From contig JAFGCU010000026.1 in the NCBI GenBank assembly GCA_016932475.1, positions 92,111 to 156,110 of the forward strand: a stretch of 64,000 nt of DNA, read 5' to 3'. The stretch comes from Anaerolineales bacterium. Its GTDB lineage: Bacteria > Chloroflexota > Anaerolineae > Anaerolineales > RBG-16-64-43. Position numbers and translations under genes: made by a program. The notes under the pieces are model-generated. The model saw nothing but the letters and a program-made list of their open reading frames with translations. It was not told the DNA's origin and made no database searches. Positions 46,221 to 59,020 of this stretch are shown in pieces (the first letter of the stretch is position 1; the number at the start of each line of letters is the position of its first letter).

Positions 46221-46287
46221 ACCGCAGAGACGCAGAGGACGCAGAGTGTTTTTTATTTGTCCTCTGCGTCCTCTGCGTCTCTGCGGT
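46221..46287. terminator. 26-bp perfect hairpin between convergent genes (probable bidirectional terminator, repeat-family member)
   Basis: ACCGCAGAGACGCAGAGGACGCAGAG (46221-46246) is the exact reverse complement of 46262-46287. The loop is T-rich. Confidence 0.6.
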
Positions 46288-46298
46288 GAGATCTTGCT

Positions 46299-46799
46299 CT
46301 ACTCCTTCGCAGGCAGGCGCACGATGAAATCCGCGCGCAATTCCCCGCCGTCTCCGCCGGTAAACAGGCCGTAGACGGCGACCACATCCCCTTTCTGCAA
46401 ATCCAACAAAGTGATCGCGCGGCCGTCCTGCTCGAGGAACCGCGTTTCCGGAGTGAGGACGATCCGGTGCGGGCCGGTGGACGAGGCCACCTGCAGGCTC
46501 TGCGGCTGGATGTGGAGGATGCGCCCGGTCAGGTTCGGACGCCCGGGCGGCAGGCTCACCGGCGGCTGCGGAGTTTGCCGCGCTCCCGGAAGCACCGGAC
46601 CGCCGGGAGAATCGCCGCCCTGGGCCGGACGGCCGTTCGCATTATCCTTTCCGACCGGGCCGGAATAACTCAGCCCGTCGCGGGTCCAGCCGTGTTCGCC
46701 GACGTAGACCCCGAGCGAAAAGGAGGAGGCGAGCAGCATTAAGAGGAGCAGCGCGCCCCCGACGGAAAGGGAAATTATTTTCCAGCGATTTGCAGCCAT
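46299..46799 (-). CDS. signal-anchored hypothetical protein (166 aa, DUF5666-like C-terminus)
   Basis: Start taken at ATG 46799 (MAANRWKIISLSVGGALLLLMLLA). This overlaps the 3' end of the upstream gene by 25 nt. Confidence 0.5.
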   Translation of the reverse strand: MAANRWKIISLSVGGALLLLMLLASSFSLGVYVGEHGWTRDGLSYSGPVGKDNANGRPAQGGDSPGGPVLPGARQTPQPPVSLPPGRPNLTGRILHIQPQSLQVASSTGPHRIVLTPETRFLEQDGRAITLLDLQKGDVVAVYGLFTGGDGGELRADFIVRLPAKE

Positions 46800-48859
46800 C
46801 GTTCCATAGTCCCTGTTTCGTTGATAACGTCCACGGTTGCCAGGTTTATTGCGGTTCCGGGTGTTGATCCGATGCCCGCCGGACGGAGGGTGAACGCGTA
46901 AGCGCCGGGAGCGGTCCCGGAGGGGATGACCAGCGCAAAGGAATCCGAGATGACGCTTCCCGGCGGAAGCGGAACGGTCAGCGAGTAGCGCCCAAGGAGG
47001 CCGAGCCCGATTTCGTGTTGTTCGAGCGTCAGGTCCCCGAGCCGGGTTTCCACGCGGAAGGATGTAATGGCAATCATCCGCCAATAGAATTTAACGTACA
47101 GGATATCCCCGCTTTCGATCCGCCGGGTGGAAAGGTCGAATCCCAACAGCTGCGCCGGACCGACTGTTTCTTCGACGATGAATTGCGGATCCGGAAAGGC
47201 TTCAAGCAGCGGCGGGGGATCGGCCGTTAGATGATAGAGCACGAGCGTCTCGCGGCGGCCGAAGCTCTCCTCCGGCTGCTGGCCGAACAAAACCGGGATC
47301 GACCAGTAGTTCCCTTTTAGCAGATCGGCCGGCAGCGCGCCGGGGCCCTGGTTGCCGGTCATGGCGCGGGTTGTGGTGAAGAGGTCGCGCCCGGCGAAAT
47401 CCTGCGCGGAAGGGTTGGGGCCGGGCAGCAGCGGCAGAAGCACGTCCGCGCGCGTGTTATAGACGAGCTGCCAATAAAACGCGTCGTACCCGAACACTCC
47501 CGATTGGGTCACCAGGGCGGAGTTTTCGGGCAGCACGCTCCACACGCCGGCGTAGAAATCGTTGACAGCCGTATCCTTCGAGAAATCGTTCGCTGCCCAG
47601 TTGTTCCGCAGCGGCACCGCCGCGAATAAAATCATCATGCATCCGGCCAAGGCCGTTATCGGTTTGGTTTTGTTGGGGCGACCGGCGGCCGCCCGCATTA
47701 TTGCCAATAACCATTGCGCCGCGCGGATTATTTCAAATAATCCAAACCCGATAAACACCGCCCACAACAGGTGCGCGGGTATGAAAAACACATCCAAGTC
47801 GAACGCGCTGTACTGGATGAAAAACCAGATCTCGACCAGGTACATTCCGACCAGCAGAAAAAAGTGCCTCGTCCGGCGCGCGAGCAGCGAAAACAATCCG
47901 ACGATCCCCAGCCCGATGCCGATCAGGCCGAATTGCTGATTGAGGAGATCCAGGTAGATCACGAGGCGGTCGGGCAGGGCGGTGAGGGGGAAGGCAAATT
48001 TAAAGCTGGGGAAAGCCCCGAGGGTGTAATTGTAGATTCCGGCGGGCGTGGTCGGCGCGCTGCGCAGCATCGCGCGGTCGATCAGCGTGGCGGCCCGAAA
48101 CGGCAGCCAGAGAAATTGCGCCGCGCCGAGCGAAAAGCCAAGCAGCCCGAGGATCACGACGGAGAGGAGAGACCTGCCAGGGTGCTGAGTATCATTTGGG
48201 GCGGGGGAAGCCGAGGCGGGCCTCGCATTGACATTCGCCATGGTTTCCGGCGCGCCGCCATGCTTGTCTACAGGTTCAAACAGGCAAAGCAGTATGAAGA
48301 GGATGAACGCCGGTGCGAAGCCCAAATCCGAAAGATGCAGACCGAGCGAGAGGCCGAAGGCCAGCGCGAAGAGGAAGAAATCCAGCCGACGGCGTGTGCG
48401 TTCCCAGCGCAGCAGCGCGATCAGCGTAATTGCGATCCCGGCCGCGTTCGGCGCGTACACTTCGGCGATCAGGCTTTGCGCCCAGAATGTTTTGGAAAAC
48501 GCCAGGAGGAGCGCGGGCAGCGCGGCCGCCGCCCGCCGCCACGGCAGAGGGAGGCTTTCCGGGAGGGTGCGGATCAGGATCCAGTAGACACCCGCGGCCG
48601 CGAGCGCCCCCATTACGGCCGACATCAGGTTGATGCGGTAGGCCGCGTCGCCGAGCGGCACCAGGCGGCTGAAAAGGAATCCCAACCAGGTGTAGAGCGG
48701 GTATCCGGGCGAATGCGCCAGGCCGAGGACGTAGGGAACGGTCGCCAGCTCGCTGCCGTCCGGGCTGAGGTAGGAAAGCGACGGGGTAAGGGTCAGCGCA
48801 TAGACGGCCAGCGTGATGATGAAAACGGCGATGGCGAGGAAGCGGTCGAGGCGGGTCAT
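46775..48859 (-). CDS. DUF2723 / TMEM260-like GT-C membrane glycosyltransferase
   Basis: Hallmark N-terminal block PDGSELATVPYVLGLAHSPGYPLYTWLGFLF. The protein is polytopic with a C-terminal soluble domain. Start taken at ATG 48859. Confidence 0.7.
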   Translation of the reverse strand: MTRLDRFLAIAVFIITLAVYALTLTPSLSYLSPDGSELATVPYVLGLAHSPGYPLYTWLGFLFSRLVPLGDAAYRINLMSAVMGALAAAGVYWILIRTLPESLPLPWRRAAAALPALLLAFSKTFWAQSLIAEVYAPNAAGIAITLIALLRWERTRRRLDFFLFALAFGLSLGLHLSDLGFAPAFILFILLCLFEPVDKHGGAPETMANVNARPASASPAPNDTQHPGRSLLSVVILGLLGFSLGAAQFLWLPFRAATLIDRAMLRSAPTTPAGIYNYTLGAFPSFKFAFPLTALPDRLVIYLDLLNQQFGLIGIGLGIVGLFSLLARRTRHFFLLVGMYLVEIWFFIQYSAFDLDVFFIPAHLLWAVFIGFGLFEIIRAAQWLLAIMRAAAGRPNKTKPITALAGCMMILFAAVPLRNNWAANDFSKDTAVNDFYAGVWSVLPENSALVTQSGVFGYDAFYWQLVYNTRADVLLPLLPGPNPSAQDFAGRDLFTTTRAMTGNQGPGALPADLLKGNYWSIPVLFGQQPEESFGRRETLVLYHLTADPPPLLEAFPDPQFIVEETVGPAQLLGFDLSTRRIESGDILYVKFYWRMIAITSFRVETRLGDLTLEQHEIGLGLLGRYSLTVPLPPGSVISDSFALVIPSGTAPGAYAFTLRPAGIGSTPGTAINLATVDVINETGTMERWLQIAGK

Positions 48860-49054
48860 GGGTGCGGATTGCCTATGAATGCGATTGTATGTGCAGACGG
48901 GATGAAAGTCTACGGTGGGCAAGGAATTCCAATGGAATAATCATCGAATCTTCATGAGAAGCAAACAGGCCAAACCGAAAAGCGTTCTTTCCAACGGGTT
49001 ACTCGGATGCGTCCCGGCCCTCTCCCGCGGCGCTTCTCGAGATGGGATACGGCA

Positions 49055-49060
49055 TATAAT
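49055..49060 (+). promoter_or_regulatory. candidate -10 box (TATAAT) for the 734-aa membrane protein gene
   Basis: A perfect hexamer lies 30 nt upstream of ATG 49091. No convincing -35 box is present. Confidence 0.3.
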
Positions 49061-49090
49061 CGGTCCAATTGAGTAACGAAGGAAAATCGA

Positions 49091-51295
49091 ATGTCTGACG
49101 GAATACCCAGCCCAACCGACGGCCCCCCGATCCTCCAAGCCGGGAATCGCGACATGAATTATTTCCTGAGCATGATCGGGTTTCTGACAGCCGCGGCGCT
49201 GCCGGTCGTAATGGCGTTCCTGGGCGGCGAGTGGGTGAGTCGCCAAGGCGCAATCGGCGCCTACATCGGGACGCTGGTGACCCTTTTCGCTTTGTTCCTG
49301 CTTCTGATCGCGGCGGGCGTTTGGTTGAAAAAGCGGGCTCTCCCGCCCCTTGCGGGACTTCCTGCAGCCTATGTAACCCTGGTCGTCCCGGTAACCTGCC
49401 TGCTGATGATGATGACGGTTACTTATCAATTTCCTCCGATGGGATATGGAATGGGGATTTTAATTGCCCATTTGGGATTTCTCATCCTGTGGAGGTTCGG
49501 CCGGGCGCGCATCAGCGGATCCGTCTTTTTGGCATCCATGAATAAAATAATTATTCTATTGCTTCCGCTCTTCTATGGGGGAATTTTCTGGGGTTGGTTT
49601 ATTCAACGATATAAGCCTTTTCTCGGCCGGGGGGCTATTGTGCTTTTGGCGGCGATGATCGCCGGATTCGCCGTGTTCACACAATCCGACAGGTTTAGGC
49701 CTCTGCGGCGGAGATGGAGCTCTCAAGGCTGGATCGTCCTCCTGCTAGGATTGTTGCTTTGCGGATTGGTCTACCAACCGGAGCTGCCCCACCTTCGATC
49801 CCATTACAACACCCTTCTGGCGACCATGCAGGATGTCCTGAGCGGAAAATTCATATTCGTGGATACCTTGTCCCAATATGGGGTCGGGATCGTTTACTTT
49901 TTACTGGCCGTCTTTAACCTCTTCCGGCTGCCGGTCGCATACCCGGGCCTGGCCATCGTTCTGAACGTGTTATACATCCTCCAATTTGCCCTGTTGTTCC
50001 TTATCCTTCATCAGGCAACCAAGAATATATTTATCAGCCTGGCCGGACTTGCCGGAATCCTGTATTTCGCCTACTTCGCCGTCTCCTGGCCGAGCATGCT
50101 GCGCGTCCCGGCGCAAAGCCCTTTACGATACGGGATGACGTACCTATTGCTGGGCGTGGGATGGGCCGGGATGAACCGCACGGGAAGGGTGTGGCGGATT
50201 GCCGAGCTGGTTCTTTTGGGAGCGGCATCGGTGTGGAGCTTGGAAGTATTGTTCTTCACGGTCATCCCCTTGGACGCTCTGCTGTTCACCGGGGGTGTGC
50301 TTTTTTCCGATAAGCCTAGAACCGGGCTGCGCGAATTCGGAAATCGGTTTCTGCTGCAGATCGGCGTGATCGGATTCTGCTGGATCGCATGGTGGGTTGC
50401 GACGGCGATAGCCGCCGGGCAGCCGCCCAACCTTTCCTATTATTTTGAGGTGTTCCTCAAATATACATCCTCGGAGCGATACGGGCCGCAGATGGATTTC
50501 CACTCCTTTTGGAATGGCGTGGTCCCCGCGATTTACCTTGGCACCCTCCTGGCAGTGGTGTTCACATCCTGGAGGCAGCGAAGCCGGCTTCCCGGAGAAA
50601 TCGCCGCTGTAATGGCGGGCTTTTCCGTTGCCGGATTACTGCAATATCTGTATTATTTTGTTTATGACCTAGATTATCACCTATCCCTTATCTGCACGCC
50701 GGCGATCCTTGTGATCGTGCTTTGGATTTTCATATCCCAAAAGGATCGGACCGCCCGGGGGGTTCCTCGGCTCAACCGATGGATTTTCGGATTGACGGTC
50801 ATCATCAGCGTGTGGTTTTGCATGGTTCTGACGAGCGGGTTTTTCAATATTGGGATAAAGAATTCCCTGATTTATAAAATCAATCGGGACTGGTTTTTGG
50901 AAGAATCGCTTGTGTTCACGAATCCATACCGCCTCCAGCCGTCGAACGATACGGTGGTAACCCTGGCCGCCTTTGTTCAAAAATACGCGGCCGGTGATCC
51001 GTCCATTGCGATTTTCGCGAAACCCGAGGACCAGACGGAAGTGCTCCTCCTTACGCACAAGACTCATCTTCTGGATTTAACGGATCCGCTCATTTCCACA
51101 TCCTCCCGGTCGTTTACTTCCCATATCCTGAGCTTGGCAGGGCGGTATGCGGGGGTCCCAGAGTACATTTTCTACGACTCCTCGGAAAACGCGCTGATCG
51201 AGACACAATGGAAAGCCTTCCAATTGCTCGCAGCCGGAGCTTCCTATTCGGTCGTCGACCGGAAGGGAAGCATACTGGTCTACCGGAAGCAATAA
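49091..51295 (+). CDS. large polytopic membrane protein (734 aa), unknown family, GT-C-like architecture
   Basis: An AAGGA RBS precedes the start. About 16 or more hydrophobic segments and a ~130-aa C-terminal soluble domain. GC content is visibly lower and patchier (35-63% per 60-nt line) than in flanking genes. Confidence 0.6.
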   Translation: MSDGIPSPTDGPPILQAGNRDMNYFLSMIGFLTAAALPVVMAFLGGEWVSRQGAIGAYIGTLVTLFALFLLLIAAGVWLKKRALPPLAGLPAAYVTLVVPVTCLLMMMTVTYQFPPMGYGMGILIAHLGFLILWRFGRARISGSVFLASMNKIIILLLPLFYGGIFWGWFIQRYKPFLGRGAIVLLAAMIAGFAVFTQSDRFRPLRRRWSSQGWIVLLLGLLLCGLVYQPELPHLRSHYNTLLATMQDVLSGKFIFVDTLSQYGVGIVYFLLAVFNLFRLPVAYPGLAIVLNVLYILQFALLFLILHQATKNIFISLAGLAGILYFAYFAVSWPSMLRVPAQSPLRYGMTYLLLGVGWAGMNRTGRVWRIAELVLLGAASVWSLEVLFFTVIPLDALLFTGGVLFSDKPRTGLREFGNRFLLQIGVIGFCWIAWWVATAIAAGQPPNLSYYFEVFLKYTSSERYGPQMDFHSFWNGVVPAIYLGTLLAVVFTSWRQRSRLPGEIAAVMAGFSVAGLLQYLYYFVYDLDYHLSLICTPAILVIVLWIFISQKDRTARGVPRLNRWIFGLTVIISVWFCMVLTSGFFNIGIKNSLIYKINRDWFLEESLVFTNPYRLQPSNDTVVTLAAFVQKYAAGDPSIAIFAKPEDQTEVLLLTHKTHLLDLTDPLISTSSRSFTSHILSLAGRYAGVPEYIFYDSSENALIETQWKAFQLLAAGASYSVVDRKGSILVYRKQ

Positions 51296-51367
51296 TCCCC
51301 TATCCGGAAGTGCGGGTTGGAAGATCACATAATTGTCCGTGGCCGTCCTCGACGCCGATATGGTTAA

Positions 51368-52849
51368 TTTCGCCCCTGCCCGGTCTCGCAGCTCTTCCCG
51401 GCCAACCCGCCGCCCACGCCGACATCCACCCCGACGCCGACCAGAACGCCAAGCACCTCGCCGACCAACACGCAGACGCCGACACCGACGTCTCAGGTTC
51501 CTTCCGGCCAGGTGTGGAAACCCCTGCCCCGCCCGATTACGGAGCACCGGTGAGTGTCCCGGCGTGGGAGTGGGCGGGGTTCTACTACGCCGGCTCCCAG
51601 CGTGTGGCGGCGCGTGCCTGCTCCGCCCGATCACGAAGCCGCCGGCGATCTTTCCAGCGCGGGAGTGAGCGGGGTTACCGGCAGCGCGAATCCTCAGGAG
51701 AACGGGCTGCCCGCCCCGCCCGTGCACGGAGCGCCGGTGATCTTTCCGGCGCGGGAGTGGGCGGGGTCACCGGCAGCGCGAATCCTCAGGAGAACGGGCT
51801 GCCCGCCCCGCCCGATCACGAAGCCGCCGGTGATCTTTCCGGCGCGGGAGTGGGCGGGGTTCTACACGGTTGGCGACCATCTTGGCAGCACGAGCCTGGT
51901 CGTGGATTCGGCCGACAACAAAGTCAGCGAGATGCGCTACACGCCGTGGGGCGAGACACGCCACCAAGGGGGGACTCCGCCTACCGACTACGGATACACC
52001 GGCCAGCGGGAGGAAGCCGGGATCGGATTGTATTATTACAATGCGAGGTGGTATGACGCGAAGCTGGGAAGGTTTGCGCAGGGGGATATGGTTATACCTA
52101 AATCAAAACAACCAAATGAATTTGATAGATATAGATATTGTAAAAACAATCCTTTATTGGTTGTCGATCCTAGTGGCAATATACCAAAAGAATGGTTCGA
52201 AAAATATTATGGTTATGATTACGATTGGTTTGTAAAAAATATTGGACGTGATTATGCAAACTTATTATTGGCCGTTATGCCAGGAGATAAAATTGTACTT
52301 GGAGGAAAAACCTATATGGTAGTAACTGATAAAAATGGAAATGTGGTTTTTCAAGCAGAAAACGGGACATTATTAAATGCATTTAATGAAATTGAAGGAG
52401 CGGGATTTAATGACCAGTTTGGTAAAAATCGATTTGATTTTCAAGCGTATAGATTTGTAAGGGGAGGGTCAGGAGGATTTGGAGGAGATGATAGATGGGA
52501 ACTTGCATATAATAGGTTTGGATATCAAAATGGTTGGAGTGACCCAAAGGCCGTTTATGAACATAGATCTGGAACTCTTGAAGGTCTTGCAGGTAAGTTC
52601 ATTGAAGGTGTGATAATGTCGGCCTTTTGTCCGCTTCCGTACGGTGGAAATATCTTATGTGGTGGAGTTATTTCAGTGCTGACACCAGATGGGGTTTTGC
52701 CTATAGGATTGGAGGAAGGAGATGTGGTAATGATGGTTTCATATGAAACAAAACAGGGATTTACTGAAGTATTTGATTGCAGAAACGGCGATATTAATAC
52801 TTCATGGAAAGTAGACCCTGTTCCAGTTCCGACTCCTCCAACGCCATAA
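51368..52849 (+). pseudogene. orphan Rhs/YD-type core C-terminal remnant fused to a low-GC C-terminal toxin-like domain
   Basis: A start-less PT linker is followed by Rhs-core blocks in shifting frames. These are FYYAGSQRVAAR, FYTVGDHLGSTS, YTPWGE, YTGQREEAGIGLYYYNARWYDAKLGRF and RYRYCKNNPLLVVDPSGN. A unique 222-aa tail follows (52181-52846). The longest intact ORF is 51554..52849, from a GTG. Confidence 0.65.
51521..51859 (+). repeat. four copies of a 58-61-nt GC-rich palindromic element at ~92-nt spacing
   Basis: Copies lie at 51521-51579, 51616-51673, 51707-51766 and 51799-51859. Each is bounded by CCCCGCCC...GGGCGGGG, and copies 2 and 4 carry an internal GATCAC...G(T/C)GATC stem. The 32-33-nt blocks at 51674-51706 and 51767-51798 are near-identical. 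Confidence 0.8.
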
Positions 52850-53725
52850 TTAAGCTTATTTTGATTAAGGAGAAAAATGAAAAAAAAATATACGAGAAGA
52901 TCGAATTGCTAAGTAGGCGCGATATATTAATTATTTTTTTCTATCACTCGATAATATATTGGGTGATTGTTCCTATTATTTATTTTCTAGATATACAAAT
53001 ATTAAGACCCTTATATATCTTAATATTTATTTGCTTCGCATTGGATGGATCAATACTATTTTTAAAAAAAAAATAAATCTCAAAAGATTAAGTATATCGG
53101 CATTATTTTGCTAATTTTATTTACTTTTGGAGTCACTAAAATGATGAATGAACTTGCCGGGTAACATTCAATTGTTATTATGTGGCGTGGAGATACGAAG
53201 CTCCCTTCGAGAGCTTAGGTAGAGTGATTGTTGCCCAGAAGGAGCCCGCAATCGAGAAATATTAGTGTGGCGGGCATCGTGTTAAGGAACGGGCATTTAT
53301 GCAATTATTGATATTTGAATAATTATTTCTCTCTGCATGATTATCAGTGGGAATAAAGCTTGGATTTAATTCTCTCCGTAATAGACAAATAACATGGTAA
53401 ATGTAATGGCATCGTGTTTGCGAAATGAGATTGAAAAAGCCTCTTTCGGAAGCAGATTTGGCCACTTTCGGTTGTCTGAAGGAGCTTGACCCGGCGTAAA
53501 GTAGACGGAGGGTATTGTGTTACCCCTCTGAGCGATAGGTGCTGGTGATCTTTCGCTGCGGGGATTTAGCGAGAAGTGATCACAGAGTGGGGTATTACTG
53601 TCTATGGAAAAGGTAGTGAAATTTTTGTTGCGAAATTTACGAACTGACTTCGATCGAGACAAGTAACCGGCGCTATTACACCACGCCCTCTCTACGTACT
53701 TATAAGATAATCTCCATTGAAGGAG
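52085..53725. other. low-GC compositional island (~30-40% GC in a ~65% GC background)
   Basis: I counted GC on individual 60-nt lines, for example 18/60 at 52081-52140. The switch is abrupt at ~52085, inside the Rhs-like ORF. GC-rich sequence returns at ~53725. Confidence 0.85.
52804..53076 (+). CDS. candidate immunity protein (small 2-TM protein), start ambiguous
   Basis: It lies immediately 3' of the toxin-like domain and is AT-rich. The hydrophobic core is ILIIFFYHSIIYWVIVPIIYFL...LYILIFICFAL. An ATG with an AAGGAG RBS at 52877 is out of frame by one nt across an A9 run (52880-52888). The in-frame ATG 52804 has no RBS. Confidence 0.4.
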   Translation: MESRPCSSSDSSNAIIKLILIKEKNEKKIYEKIELLSRRDILIIFFYHSIIYWVIVPIIYFLDIQILRPLYILIFICFALDGSILFLKKK

Positions 53726-53726
53726 A

Positions 53727-53949
53727 CTTCCCCAGCCTCCCCGCTCGCGAAATCTTCGCGCTGGGAAGACTGCCAGTGCTCATCGCTCCCCCGCTTCGTA
53801 ATCGTGCAGGTTCAAAAAACCGAACCTGCACACTCCATGGGGGCAGGCGGGGGAGAGGCTTTTTCCTCCCCCGTTAGTCTTCCCCCCAAGATCATGTCAC
53901 CCTATTTGCCCTCGACAACGTTTGTTTTAGTTTTTTAGGGCAAATAGGG
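53727..53949. repeat. stack of intergenic hairpins
   Basis: Three hairpins are present. CGCGAA-atc-TTCGCG sits inside cttccccagc...gctgggaag. GTGCAGGTTC/GAACCTGCAC spans 53804-53831. CCCTATTTGCCCT (53900-53912) pairs with AGGGCAAATAGGG (53937-53949). Confidence 0.65.
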
Positions 53950-53982
53950 GGCTATAGGGAGGCGGGAGGCTAACGGGAGAAG

Positions 53983-54498
53983 ATGATTGAAGGATATAAT
54001 TATCCCGTGCCCGTCCTAGACGCCAACACGGTTGATTTCACCTCAAGCAGCCCGGAGCAAACCCAGCGGATGGGAGCGCGGCTGGGGGAGCTCCTGCGCC
54101 CCGGCGACCTGATCTGCCTGCACGGGGATCTTGGCGCCGGCAAGACCACGCTGGTGCAGGGCATGGCCCGCGGATGGGGGTCTGCCCGGGCGGCGCGCAG
54201 CCCGACGTTTGTCCTGGTGCACGAATACAAACGCGCCGACGGCAAAGTGCTGTATCATCTGGATGCCTTCCGCCTGAAACCGGGGGAGGGGCCGGGGCTG
54301 GAGATCGACTCGGCCCTCGACCACGGCGCGATGGTGGTGGAGTGGCCGGAACGGGTCGGGGAGATGCTCGAGCGGGACCGGGTTCAAGTGGAGATGCGGT
54401 GGATCGATGACACACGAAGAAACCTCCGCCTCGAAGGCAAAGGCGCGCGGCCGGAAGAAATCCTCCGAGACTTTCGGAAGCTGGCTTTCGGAAACTGA
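53983..54498 (+). CDS. tsaE: tRNA t6A37 biosynthesis ATPase TsaE
   Basis: The Walker A motif GDLGAGKTTLVQG and the block SPTFVLVHEY are present. Confidence 0.85.
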   Translation: MIEGYNYPVPVLDANTVDFTSSSPEQTQRMGARLGELLRPGDLICLHGDLGAGKTTLVQGMARGWGSARAARSPTFVLVHEYKRADGKVLYHLDAFRLKPGEGPGLEIDSALDHGAMVVEWPERVGEMLERDRVQVEMRWIDDTRRNLRLEGKGARPEEILRDFRKLAFGN

Positions 54499-55168
54499 GT
54501 GGATTCTGGCGGTCGACACCGCGACCGAGACGCTTGCCCTAGCGCTCTACGACGGGCAGCGGGTCGCGGCGGAAACCGCCTGGCCGGCGCATATGCACCA
54601 CACGGTCGAGCTTGCCCCCGCGGTCGAGGAGCTCCTGCGCCGGACGGGGGTGAAGCCGGAGGAGATCCGCGCGGTGGGCGTGGCCCAGGGGCCGGGTTCC
54701 TACACTGCGCTGCGGATCGGGATGGCCTTCGCCGCCGGCTTTGCGGTCCCGCACAACCTTCCGGTCTACGGCATCCCCACCTTCGAGATTATCGTCCGGG
54801 CCCAGCCCGTGACGGAAAAGGAACAGGTCGCGGTCCTGCGCGCCGGGCGCGGACGGATTGCCTGGTGCGCGTACAAGGCAGTGGCGGGCAAGTGGAAGGC
54901 GGCGGGGGAGGCGCGGGTTTCCTCCTGGGAGGAACTGGCCGCCGAAGCGCCGAAGAGGGCGCGGATTTGCGGGGAGATCGACCGCGCCGGAAAAGCGGCG
55001 CTGGCCAAACGCCGGGATCTTAAACTTGCGCCCCCGCATCGCAATGCGCGGCGGGCGGGCGTGCTGGCGGAAATGACCGCCGAGCACATGCGCGACCCGG
55101 AAACGCGGCCGATGATGCTCCAGCCGATTTACCTGGATACGATTCCGAAAGCAAAGACGGTCGAGTAG
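54407..55168 (+). CDS. tsaB: tRNA t6A37 biosynthesis protein TsaB
   Basis: Blocks ILAVDTATETLALALYDG and GPGSYTALRIGMAFAAGFA are present. The true start is uncertain: ATG 54407 would overlap tsaE by 92 nt, and the conserved domain begins near 54500. Confidence 0.75.
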   Translation: MTHEETSASKAKARGRKKSSETFGSWLSETEWILAVDTATETLALALYDGQRVAAETAWPAHMHHTVELAPAVEELLRRTGVKPEEIRAVGVAQGPGSYTALRIGMAFAAGFAVPHNLPVYGIPTFEIIVRAQPVTEKEQVAVLRAGRGRIAWCAYKAVAGKWKAAGEARVSSWEELAAEAPKRARICGEIDRAGKAALAKRRDLKLAPPHRNARRAGVLAEMTAEHMRDPETRPMMLQPIYLDTIPKAKTVE

Positions 55169-57134: not shown

Positions 57135-57204
57135 CACCGCAGAGACGCGGAGAGCGCAGAGAAATTAATAAAAAAATCTCAGCGTTCTCTGCGCCTCTGC
57201 GGTG
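57135..57204. repeat. imperfect long hairpin of the caccgcagag...ctctgcggtg family
   Basis: The arms are ~27 nt with about 4 mismatches, and the loop is A-rich. It is related to the perfect hairpin at 46221. Confidence 0.6.
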
Positions 57205-57231
57205 TGATCTTGATTTTCTCGGAGGATTTGC

Positions 57232-57849
57232 ATGACGGCAATCGAAGAACTGGCGCAGATCGCAAAAGAAGTATCGGGATGCACGTCCTGCAGCCTGCAC
57301 TCCTCGCGCAAGAACGCAGTGCCCGGCGAAGGCCCGGCGGATTCCTCGCTCCTGTTCATCGGGGAAGGCCCCGGGTTCCACGAAAACGAGCAGGGGCGCC
57401 CGTTTGTCGGGGCGGCCGGCAAATTCCTGGAGGAGCTCCTGGCGAGCATCCGTCTGAGCCGGGAACAGGTTTTTATCTGCAACGTCGTAAAATGCCGGCC
57501 GCCCGGGAACCGCGATCCGCAGCCGGACGAGATCGAAGCCTGCCGCGCCTACCTCGACCGGCAAATTGCCGCCATCCAGCCCAAGGTGATCGTCACCCTG
57601 GGGCGGTTTTCGATGGCCCGCTACTTCGGCGCCTCCAAAATCTCGTCCGTCCACGGCCAGGCCAAGACCGTTGACGGCCGGCTGGTGGTGGCGATGTTCC
57701 ATCCGGCCGCGGCGCTGCATCAGCCGGATCTCAAGCAGACGATCAAGGATGATTTCCAAAAACTGCCGGCGCTGATCGAAGAAGTGCGCAAACTGGACTC
57801 CGCCGGCTCCAAGCCCGTGCCGGATGCAACCCAGCTGCCCATGTTCTGA
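57232..57849 (+). CDS. uracil-DNA glycosylase, family 4
   Basis: Motifs: GCTSCSL, LLFIGEGPGFHENEQGRPFVGAAG, FHPAAAL. A GGAGGA RBS is present. Confidence 0.85.
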   Translation: MTAIEELAQIAKEVSGCTSCSLHSSRKNAVPGEGPADSSLLFIGEGPGFHENEQGRPFVGAAGKFLEELLASIRLSREQVFICNVVKCRPPGNRDPQPDEIEACRAYLDRQIAAIQPKVIVTLGRFSMARYFGASKISSVHGQAKTVDGRLVVAMFHPAAALHQPDLKQTIKDDFQKLPALIEEVRKLDSAGSKPVPDATQLPMF

Positions 57850-58006
57850 TCCGCAAGGATATTCATGCTTGCGGAGGCGGGAGATGCAATCGGAGCGTGT
57901 CCCGCGGTATCATGTGCCGCCTGACCCGGCGGACCGGTTAACCCGGACGGGCGGATGACGATCCAACATCAGGCTCAAGGCCGGTAGAAATTCGGAGAAG
58001 AAAACC

Positions 58007-59020
58007 GTGGAATCAAAAAAGGCGCTCATCACAGGGATCACCGGGCAGGACGGCTCCTACCTCGCCGAATTGCTGATCGGGAAGGGGTACGAAGTGCACG
58101 GCCTGATCCGCCGCGCCAGCACCTTCAACACCGACCGGATCGACCATCTATACCAGGATCCGCACGTCAACGGCGTGAAACTCTTCCTGCATTACGGCGA
58201 CCTTTCGGATTCGACCAACTTGTGGAAGCTGCTCCATCACCTGCGGCCGGATGAAATCTACAACCTCGCCGCGCAAAGCCACGTCAAGGTGAGCTTCGAC
58301 ATGCCGGAATACACCGGCGACATCACCGGGGTCGGGACCGTCCGCCTGTTGGACGCGATCCACGAGATGGACCTGCCGTGCCGCTTTTACCAGGCCTCGA
58401 GCAGCGAGATGTACGGGAAGGTGCATGAAATTCCGCAGAAGGAAACGACTCCCTTTCATCCGCGCAGCCCGTATGCCTGCGCCAAGGTATACGCCTACTG
58501 GACGACCGTCAACTACCGCGAAGCCTACGGGATGTTCGCCTGCAACGGGATCCTCTTCAACCACGAGAGCCCGCGGCGCGGGGAGACCTTCGTCACCAAA
58601 AAAATCACCAAGGCGATTGCGTACATCGAAGCCGGCCTGCAACAGAAGCTGTTCCTGGGCAATCTCGATTCCAGCCGGGATTGGGGATACGCTCCGGAAT
58701 ACGTCGAGGCGATGTGGAAGATGCTGCAGCAGGACGAACCGGACGATTTCGTCATCGCCACCGGCGAGACGCATACCGTGCGCGAATTTCTCGACGAGGC
58801 GTTTTCCTACGCGAACCTCGACCCCCAAAAATACGTCGAGACAGACCCTCGCTATTTCCGCCCGAGCGAGGTGGATTACCTGATCGGGGATTCCTCCAAG
58901 GCCGGGGAAAAGATCGGCTGGGCACCCAAAACGACCTTCCGCGAACTGGTGCGGATCATGGTCGACGCCGACCGCGAGACCCTCCGCCGGAAAATGGCCG
59001 GCGGCAAGGACGCGGCCTGA
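58007..59020 (+). CDS. gmd: GDP-mannose 4,6-dehydratase
   Basis: Motifs: [46 protein letters not shown]. The start is GTG with a GGAGAAG RBS. Confidence 0.95.

Follow-up and report, generated by a model that had tools for sequence, protein, structure and literature searches.

Orphan rhs-CT/rhsI and cdiA-CT/cdiI modules have been described in Enterobacteria (Poole et al. 2011, PMC3150448; Koskiniemi et al. 2014, PMC3967940). Like these, the locus studied here consists of a truncated Rhs core tail with a DPxG motif and a variable toxin domain of lower GC content, it has a small ORF directly downstream in the immunity position, and no delivery shell is attached. It differs in its host, an Anaerolineales MAG, and in having no full-length rhs gene ahead of it; the window (the whole 64-kb stretch of DNA that was analysed) contains none. 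Furthermore, neither the putative toxin nor the putative immunity ORF has relatives, and the latter is frame-disrupted at codons 2-4. A related arrangement is found in Pseudomonas aeruginosa, where Tse5-CT is a pore-forming Rhs toxin and Tsi5 a small inner-membrane immunity protein with two transmembrane (TM) helices (PMC9637101). In both cases the ORF that follows directly on the Rhs toxin domain encodes a small protein with two TM helices, and the toxin belongs to no predicted enzymatic family and contains a Gly-rich hydrophobic stretch. In contrast to Tse5-CT/Tsi5, the cassette here has no detected sequence similarity to anything, and membrane targeting of its toxin is a guess.

The frame disruption itself has several described counterparts. 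A9/T9 runs are hypermutable and prone to transcriptional slippage, nine A's being a length at which bacterial RNA polymerase slips efficiently, for example in Thermus thermophilus dnaX and in IS elements, and ORFs disrupted at such runs are restorable by one additional A (Baranov et al. 2005, PMC1088944). The same work lists ORFans of this slippage-restorable kind, the status of which is not assessable. At our locus, an A9 run on the sense strand (52880-88) likewise needs one extra A to restore a long ORF of 66 aa; in contrast to the known sites, the tract is placed right at the beginning of the gene, so that translation without slippage yields an 11-mer instead of a shorter isoform that could be of use. 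Programmed -1 frameshifting (PRF) in dnaX and the IS3 family takes place on an A_AAA_AAG/A heptamer. The locus resembles these sites in having A_AAA_AAA in the zero frame and an SD-like sequence 9 nt upstream, a spacing close to that of the stimulatory SD of E. coli dnaX, and differs in that no stimulatory structure is present, the SD is the initiation SD and the site follows one codon after the start. Finally, the phase-variable genes of Neisseria, Haemophilus and Campylobacter are homopolymer contingency loci. They share with our locus a homopolymer at the coding 5' end, the length of which sets the frame, whereas the tract here is at the low end of length and the window holds no other such loci.

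In the reading that we tentatively favour, 52867-53076 encode a small membrane protein, the putative immunity partner in a vestigial Rhs C-terminal toxin/immunity cassette that was acquired horizontally (Table 1). Translation would start at a strong SD/ATG, and the ORF body is one base out of register because the lysine-codon poly-A run has nine and not ten A's.

Table 1. Features of the cassette and its surroundings, in coordinates of the window.
Feature	Position	Strand	Basis or remark
Strain-specific insertion of ~5.1 kb, flanked by tsaE and, on the minus strand, by a gene for a TMEM260-like glycosyltransferase	48862..53990	+	blastn vs related JGI contigs L008/L009
Tandem repeat with a unit of 92-93 nt, present in three to four copies, in an Rhs-like remnant (..EWAGFYYAGSQRVA.. 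/ ..EWAGFYTVGDHLGS..)	51520..51870	+	repeat search, three-frame translation
Rhs repeat-associated core tail ending in NNPLLVVDPSGN	51938..52177	+	NCBIfam TIGR03696, E = 4.3e-20
Putative polymorphic C-terminal toxin domain, 223 aa, with Gly-rich hydrophobic stretch (GVIMSAFCPLPYGGNILCGGVISVL)	52178..52849	+	follows the DPxG motif; stop TAA 52847-49
Shine-Dalgarno sequence AAGGAG	52867..52872	+	4 nt before ATG 52877
Start codon and mini-ORF of 11 codons, MKKKYTRRSNC*; zero-frame product as recorded	52877..52912	+	
A9 tract, read as three AAA codons for Lys; here the frame is off by one base	52880..52888	+	
Putative immunity ORF body, -1 frame, IYEKIELLSRRD...LFLKKK*, two TM-like segments	52888..53076	+	
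A10 tract	53064..53073	+	adjoins stop TAA 53074-76
Possible C-terminal extension, +1 frame, ..NKSQKIKYIGIILLILFTFGVTKMMNELAG*	53072..53164	+	reached if the second tract is A9

Most of what the earlier note had read from the letters could be reproduced on the sequence. The ATG at 52877-52879 behind AAGGAG is followed immediately by the A9 tract and opens a mini-ORF (ATG AAA AAA AAA TAT ACG AGA AGA TCG AAT TGC TAA) that ends at 52910-12. The hydrophobic ORF, ..NEKKIYEKIELLSRRDILIIFFYHSIIYWVIVPIIYFLDIQILRPLYILIFICFALDGSILFLKKK*, lies as claimed in the -1 frame relative to this ATG, in the phase of 52804/52876, and the second A run directly 5' of its stop indeed has ten A's. With ten A's in the first tract the reading becomes a 66-aa protein, MKKKIYEK...LFLKKK, as had been predicted, and a -1 slip would give the same protein on the A_AAA_AAA heptamer (52882-52888, in the zero frame of ATG 52877). 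Two TM-like segments, which had also been proposed, appear in Kyte-Doolittle profiles with hydropathy maxima of 2.35 and 2.22 (19-residue windows). Only the statement on the start codons had to be corrected: ATG 52804 is the only in-frame ATG and has no RBS, but it is not the sole in-frame start codon, as a TTG at 52906-08 lies 1 nt before the stop of the mini-ORF, so that an ORF from this TTG overlaps that stop (TTGCTAA). If one A were removed from the second tract, 184 nt from the first, the ORF would be longer by 30 codons, which include a third TM-like helix (p about 0.01); an open stretch of 30 codons with a hydrophobic window of at least 1.8 was found in 0.7-0.9% of shuffles. In the frame of this extension T occupies 47% of second codon positions, and the AT-rich DNA stops at about 53150 according to a fine GC profile.

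The cassette is part of a strain-specific insertion that also contains a 734-aa membrane ORFan, an Rhs remnant and ~800 nt without ORFs. In blastn comparisons the backbone of the two related contigs matches 46261-48861 and 53991-55000 (TsaE 96% identical), with a 257-nt spacer in place of the insertion, and the cassette was absent from the relatives examined. Coming from upstream, GC content drops from ~70% to 30-42% at about 52050, as expected for the variable domain of an Rhs-CT cassette, and within the cassette, the end of which is the small ORF gene, it amounts to 24-40%. A PxxxxDPxG motif, also typical of Rhs-CT cassettes, closes the Rhs repeat-associated core tail, and the match to NF041261 covers model positions 1162-1260 of 1261, which means that only the last ~100 positions of the Rhs core are present. 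The protein of 305 aa that begins at ATG 51932 bears the NCBI name 'RHS repeat-associated core domain-containing protein'. Neither a full YD-repeat shell nor an N-terminal delivery region belongs to the cassette, which is therefore a vestigial or orphan fragment. The ORF upstream matched no Rhs or YD family in Pfam or NCBIfam, and the upstream Rhs remnants are frame-broken; in the tandem repeats this is because the period of 92-93 nt is not a multiple of three. No Rhs families were detected among the ten large ORFs scanned, the largest ORF of the window being a 1012-aa GlyRS, so the strict definition of an orphan rhs module, which places it downstream of a full-length main rhs gene, does not apply within these 64 kb. 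An AF2 model of the toxin domain was unusable (pLDDT 38.7).

Several observations bear on whether the small ORF is a gene at all. The SD/ATG pair at 52867-72 / 52877 is a real start signal: when the 114 nt behind the toxin stop were dinucleotide-shuffled, AAGGAG followed within 3-9 nt by ATG came up in 0.2% of cases, and the calculated anti-SD duplex reaches -9.2 kcal/mol at ATG 52877, compared with -2.1 at ATG 52804 and -3.0 at TTG 52906. The 74-codon open stretch after the toxin stop is modestly unusual (p = 0.023), and T makes up 55% of second codon positions in the small ORF as opposed to 32-37% of first and third ones. Scoring the frames by codon usage against the toxin domain was uninformative because soluble and membrane proteins differ in composition. 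The label of an immunity-gene candidate fits the position, since the putative ORF begins 28 nt after the stop of the toxin ORF and shares the low GC content of the toxin domain. The toxin ORF itself carries a confirmed Rhs-associated core tail (TIGR03696, E = 4e-20), and the small ORF is the sole ORF in the slot typical of polymorphic-toxin immunity genes, from which we infer a possible immunity function of its product. The gene status of the small ORF is based on modest statistics (ORF length) and on the position, and no homologue adds to these. In the NCBI annotation no gene is called at the small ORF, and NCBI protein accessions are consecutive from the 734-aa ORF through TsaE. None of eight sequence forms of the small ORF, of which five vary the start and three reconstruct the tract length, has an exact record in a collection of 15 billion proteins, and no exact record was found for six start variants of the toxin.

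The earlier note had proposed comparing homologous cassettes, and this route turned out to be closed, as no homologue is available for comparison, be it of the toxin domain or of the small ORF. Among 5.8 billion proteins the toxin domain matched only itself, and it matched nothing in genome contigs, metagenome contigs, plasmids, phages, PDB or Pfam. For the small ORF, phmmer against 1.84 billion representatives gave 0 matches and 0 related loci were found, while a word-indexed search with the reconstructed 95-aa form also gave 0 matches. Beyond the Rhs tail, Pfam and NCBIfam yielded nothing significant, and the small ORF has no similarity to known immunity families. As there are no relatives in any collection searched, the frame could not be judged from homologues. 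The run accession SRR13394437 gave no result in a literature search.

A9 and A10 are the two longest homopolymers of the window, and only three A runs of at least eight occur in the 64 kb, two of them in the small ORF. Based on composition, a run of at least nine A's is expected 0.025 times in the 324-nt AT-rich stretch. The lysine codons of the cassette are AAA in 12 and AAG in two cases, and therefore three consecutive lysines yield A9 by default, with no need for selection on the tract. A search for RNA structure that could stimulate frameshifting was negative: the fold of 52860-52990 has a z-score of -1.16, with 29 of 200 shuffles folding as well, and the one clean hairpin present does not begin until 52943, which is 55 nt past the heptamer instead of the 5-9 nt known from PRF sites. 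Neither an Rfam match nor a tRNA was detected in 51000-54200. A fusion of toxin and immunity protein by frameshifting at the 3' end of the toxin ORF was considered and rejected, as 52790-52849 contains no slippery heptamer on reading.

Regarding the accuracy of the assembly, two contigs that Logan assembled independently from SRR13394437 agree with the window at 100% identity along 6.4 kb, a stretch with five 6-nt runs. One of them (L001) stops at 51706, inside the tandem repeats, and the other covers 57175-58114, so that neither spans the A9 tract. The genes of the window tile without phase breaks, coding phase is continuous in all of them, A8 and G8 runs lie within intact ORFs, the A8 run at 9358-65, and GlyRS matches its models end to end. 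The lack of frame breaks elsewhere and the identity to the Logan contigs speak mildly against an error-prone assembly.

From these data a homopolymer indel emerges as the most likely explanation, an assembly slip being less likely, and we do not regard the locus as a new regulatory device. Specifically, we tentatively favour, with a confidence just short of an even chance, a real slipped-strand indel, not a programmed one, in an orphan Rhs-CT cassette that is decaying and possibly leaky via slippage. The indel would be present in the DNA of this population, reflecting either early decay or plain tract-length instability of a cassette that is no longer joined to a full Rhs delivery shell. The locus as recorded would then give rise to the 11-aa peptide, and the 66-aa protein might be produced in minority events only, when RNA polymerase adds one A on A9 or the ribosome slips by -1; such a rescue, like the reality of the indel, we infer. 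The vestigial Rhs tail, the frame-breaking repeats upstream and the strain-specific insertion favour decay, and both the missing stimulatory RNA structure and the origin of the A run in lysine codon usage argue against a programmed device. Some points count against this reading. Consensus errors concentrate in the longest homopolymers, which are exactly these two tracts, and an intact toxin ORF can persist next to an inactive immunity gene only as long as the toxin fragment stays unexpressed. Neither the 223 codons of the toxin domain nor the 62 codons of the small-ORF body contain a stop despite the AT-rich DNA, which leaves two options, a very recent inactivation or a gene that is still used.

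Among the alternatives, a consensus error hiding a true A10 at 52880-88, and thus an ordinary intact 66-aa ORF, is unlikely but the one to be taken most seriously. The sequence comes from a MAG, tract 1 is one of its two record homopolymers in the window, ORF body and toxin domain show no other defect, and the short-read contigs of this run from Logan are fragmented here and leave the cassette uncovered; against an error stand the undisturbed coding phase, the harmless A8 and G8 runs, the full-length GlyRS and the identity over 6.4 kb, and the 95-aa form with three TM helices would even require two errors of opposite sign. Adaptive phase variation, with slipped-strand mispairing at tract 1 switching the immunity protein ON and OFF and tract 2 selecting two or three TM helices, appears improbable. 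It would account for two A runs of at least nine in one 200-nt ORF (0.025 expected per run), for the position of tract 1 at codons 2-4, the classic ON/OFF position, and for the open frame with its TM helix behind tract 2, and the loop charges, judged from hydropathy, would fit the positive-inside rule in the three-TM form. Lysine runs flanking TM helices, together with 86% AAA usage, nevertheless explain the tracts, the 64 kb contain no further long tracts, the cassette is vestigial, and there are no homologues or other strains showing tract polymorphism. A full two-switch contingency device, in which tract 1 (A9/A10) turns the gene off or on and tract 2 (A10/A9) decides between a 66-aa two-helix and a 95-aa three-helix protein with the C-terminus on the opposite side of the membrane, by switching at the DNA or RNA level, is the least probable of all readings considered. 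We know of no such homopolymer switching mechanism described in the Chloroflexi lineage.

Programmed recoding, i.e. transcriptional slippage on A9 or -1 frameshifting on A_AAA_AAA as the normal route to a low, fixed immunity level, we regard as very improbable. The canonical heptamer in the zero frame and the SD 9 nt upstream are what such a site would show, while initiation already explains the SD, translation in the zero frame yields a meaningless 11-mer, no hairpin or pseudoknot follows downstream at a suitable distance and homologues that could show conservation are lacking. Just as doubtful is an initiation without any frameshift at TTG 52906, giving 56 aa (MLSRRDIL...) by translational coupling to the strongly initiated 11-codon leader ORF. 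This start is in frame, lies 1 nt ahead of the mini-ORF stop and keeps both TM segments, yet TTG is a rare start with a weak SD, the 56-aa product is absent from protein collections, the leader would be otherwise purposeless, and a single extra A gives a conventional MKKK N-terminus. Even less credit is due to the idea that there is no such gene, either because the frame arose by chance in an AT-rich spacer or 3'-UTR behind a toxin fragment or because the real start is ATG 52804. The zero homologues, the only modestly unusual ORF length and the missing NCBI call are in line with a chance frame; the SD/ATG at the expected spot (p = 0.002), the enrichment of T at codon position 2 combined with two TM segments, and the occupation of the immunity slot by this ORF alone are not. 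ATG 52804 was rejected as a start, having no SD, a 46-nt overlap with the toxin ORF and a far stronger start downstream.

Stable length heterogeneity at both tracts, if true, would be an initial sign that immunity or membrane topology can be switched in a polymorphic-toxin system, a possibility to which we assign a small probability. If the indel favoured above is real, the locus joins other small genes broken at a homopolymer, here within a toxin/immunity cassette that was acquired laterally and is decaying, and AAA-rich lysine runs flanking membrane helices would be fragile points once low-GC DNA enters a high-GC genome. The main relevance lies in annotation, since the NCBI pipeline called nothing here.

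The arrangement of Shine-Dalgarno (SD) sequence, ATG, A9 tract and reading frames that the earlier note gave for the small ORF, a putative immunity gene behind a toxin ORF, matches the sequence exactly; the feature is present and was correctly described. The ORF lies in the -1 frame relative to ATG 52877, and a 66-aa protein (MKKKIYEK...) results from a tenth A in the first tract or from a -1 slip on A_AAA_AAA. Within the 114 nt 3' of the toxin stop, AAGGAG followed after 3-9 nt by ATG was found in 0.2 % of dinucleotide shuffles, and the predicted anti-SD duplex reaches -9.2 kcal/mol for ATG 52877 whereas ATG 52804 reaches -2.1 and the in-frame TTG 52906 reaches -3.0. Runs of at least nine A's are expected 0.025 times in the AT-rich stretch of the small ORF, and two of the only three A runs of at least 8 nt in the 64-kb window fall in this ORF.

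Features of the small ORF and of the DNA upstream of it (window coordinates)
Feature	Position	Strand	Remark
SD AAGGAG	52867-72		
Start codon ATG	52877-79		
A9 tract	52880-88		directly after ATG, then TATACGAGAAGATCGAATTGCTAA
Mini-ORF MKKKYTRRSNC-stop	TAA 52910-12		frame of ATG 52877
Small ORF, ..NEKKIYEKIELLSRRDILIIFFYHSIIYWVIVPIIYFLDIQILRPLYILIFICFALDGSILFLKKK-stop	TAA 53074-76		phase of 52804 and 52876
A10 run	53064-73		abuts stop of small ORF
Tandem repeat, 92-93-nt unit, three to four copies, 83-92 % identical	51520-51870		cannot be coding
734-aa multi-pass membrane ORFan (MBN2084342.1, JW748_03895)	49091-51295	+	not Rhs

Evidence that the small ORF is a gene is moderate. The 74-codon open stretch has a p-value of 0.023, T occupies 55 % of codon position 2 versus 32-37 % at the other positions, and the product contains two hydrophobic segments (hydropathy means 2.2-2.35). 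Besides an overlapping 51-aa TTG ORF in another frame, it is the sole ORF of at least 30 aa in the slot that follows the toxin gene. Eight forms of it were looked up in protein records and none was present, the NCBI protein accessions leave no gap for its product between toxin and TsaE, and homologue comparison returned no match for the 66-aa window translation (52876-53073) or for a 95-aa reconstruction with nine A's in the second tract.

In the upstream ORF, TIGR03696 (E = 4e-20) identifies the tail of an Rhs repeat-associated core, which ends ..NNPLLVVDPSGN and covers only the last ~100 of 1261 positions in the Rhs core model; a 223-aa domain follows, for which searches returned itself alone. 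Near 52050 the GC content falls from ~70 % to 30-42 %; across the small ORF it is 16-28 %. Rhs-like fragments in differing frames lie 5' of the tail, and the tandem repeats, encoding ..PAPPD(Y/H)..APVIFPAREWAG.. in shifting frames, are flanked on one side by the Rhs fragment 'EWAGFYYAGSQRVA', which is out of frame, and on the other by the Rhs tail 'EWAGFYTVGDHLGS'. These repeats resemble scars left by recurrent recombination at the Rhs core/tail junction. The 734-aa ORFan (no Pfam or NCBIfam family, singleton cluster; GC ~50-58 %, below the flanking genome) belongs to the same insertion. From the TMEM260-like gene to tsaE, close metagenome relatives (TsaE 96 % identical) have 257 nt versus 5.1 kb here (48862-53990). 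Taken together, the truncated tail, the GC drop, the frame-broken debris and this length difference identify the locus as a vestigial Rhs-CT/immunity module within a strain-specific insertion. It is similar to orphan rhs-CT/rhsI modules (PMC3150448, PMC3967940), but not a strict orphan, since the window has no main rhs gene; its largest ORFs are housekeeping or polysaccharide genes. The small protein is alike in nature to Tsi5 of Tse5-CT/Tsi5, an immunity protein with two TM regions (PMC9637101), while its sequence does not place it in an immunity family.

The frame problem belongs with known ORFs that are broken at A9 and restorable by slippage (PMC1088944). Decay or plain tract instability is ranked first, if tentatively, being in keeping with a cassette that is vestigial; the feature is most likely mundane. 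An assembly error appears rather unlikely: the A9 and A10 runs are indeed the longest homopolymers in the window, but coding phase is unbroken across its remainder, A8 and G8 runs sit in intact ORFs, GlyRS is full length and a second assembler gave the identical sequence over 6.4 kb. The contigs of this independent assembly (Logan, SRR13394437) match the window at 100 % identity; they end at 51706 or start past 57175, and one ends within the tandem repeats.

Adaptive phase variation is improbable, and programmed recoding is given still less credence. Heptamer and A9 length match known recoding sites (PMC1088944), but the zero-frame product is an 11-mer, and the cassette uses AAA over AAG (12 : 2), so that KKK yields an A-run by default. 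Nor does RNA structure follow the site: the minimum-energy fold pairs the A9 tract (52880-52888) with the U-rich run UUAUUUUUUU (52931-52941), ~45 nt downstream within the ORF, and this fold is not better than those of shuffles (z = -1.16). Under any reading with a real indel, the published behaviour of A9 tracts leads us to expect some full-length protein through polymerase or ribosome slippage.

Two points extend the earlier note. The in-frame TTG 52906 overlaps the mini-ORF stop (TTGCTAA), so a coupled 56-aa product is conceivable, although unlikely; its SD is weak. In addition, a second frame change may be concealed in the A10 tract: nine A's there would let the ORF run on as ..LFLKKNKSQKIKYIGIILLILFTFGVTKMMNELAG-stop (53162-64) and gain a third hydrophobic helix; such an open hydrophobic continuation occurred in 0.7-0.9 % of shuffles, and the AT-rich DNA stops right at its end. 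The loop charges, as read from the sequence, would agree with the positive-inside rule. If the 95-aa form were ancestral, the locus would carry two homopolymer indels of opposite sign, which mutation explains more easily than systematic sequencing bias.

The spot between the TMEM260-like glycosyltransferase gene and tsaE is variable, with the 257-nt spacer in close relatives (L008:2756-3012, L009) and a PMT_2 gene in either orientation in others. Downstream of the small ORF, ~800 nt (53170-53980; GC alternating between 26 and 58 %) contain a weak 33-nt direct repeat (53394-53426 / 53604-53636, 73 %) and no convincing ORF, Rfam match or tRNA; they may be further remnants of the cassette or the region of the tsaE promoter. 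Just 3' of the 734-aa ORF lies a Pro/Thr-rich linker-like stretch without start codon, PPPTPTSTPTPTRTPSTSPTNTQTPTPTS (51374-51550, frame of 51200); the C-terminus of the toxin domain likewise reads PVPVPTPPTP. Within the toxin domain (52100-52850), SD-like motifs with an ATG after them are strongly enriched. AAGGAG..ATG occurs three times in the island against 0.06 expected, two of the three lying in the toxin domain, and relaxed motifs occur 14 times against 1.2 expected, one such site being AAGGAGATGTGGTAATG with in-frame ATGs 52730/52733. The content of GGA/GAA/GAG codons probably accounts for this excess.
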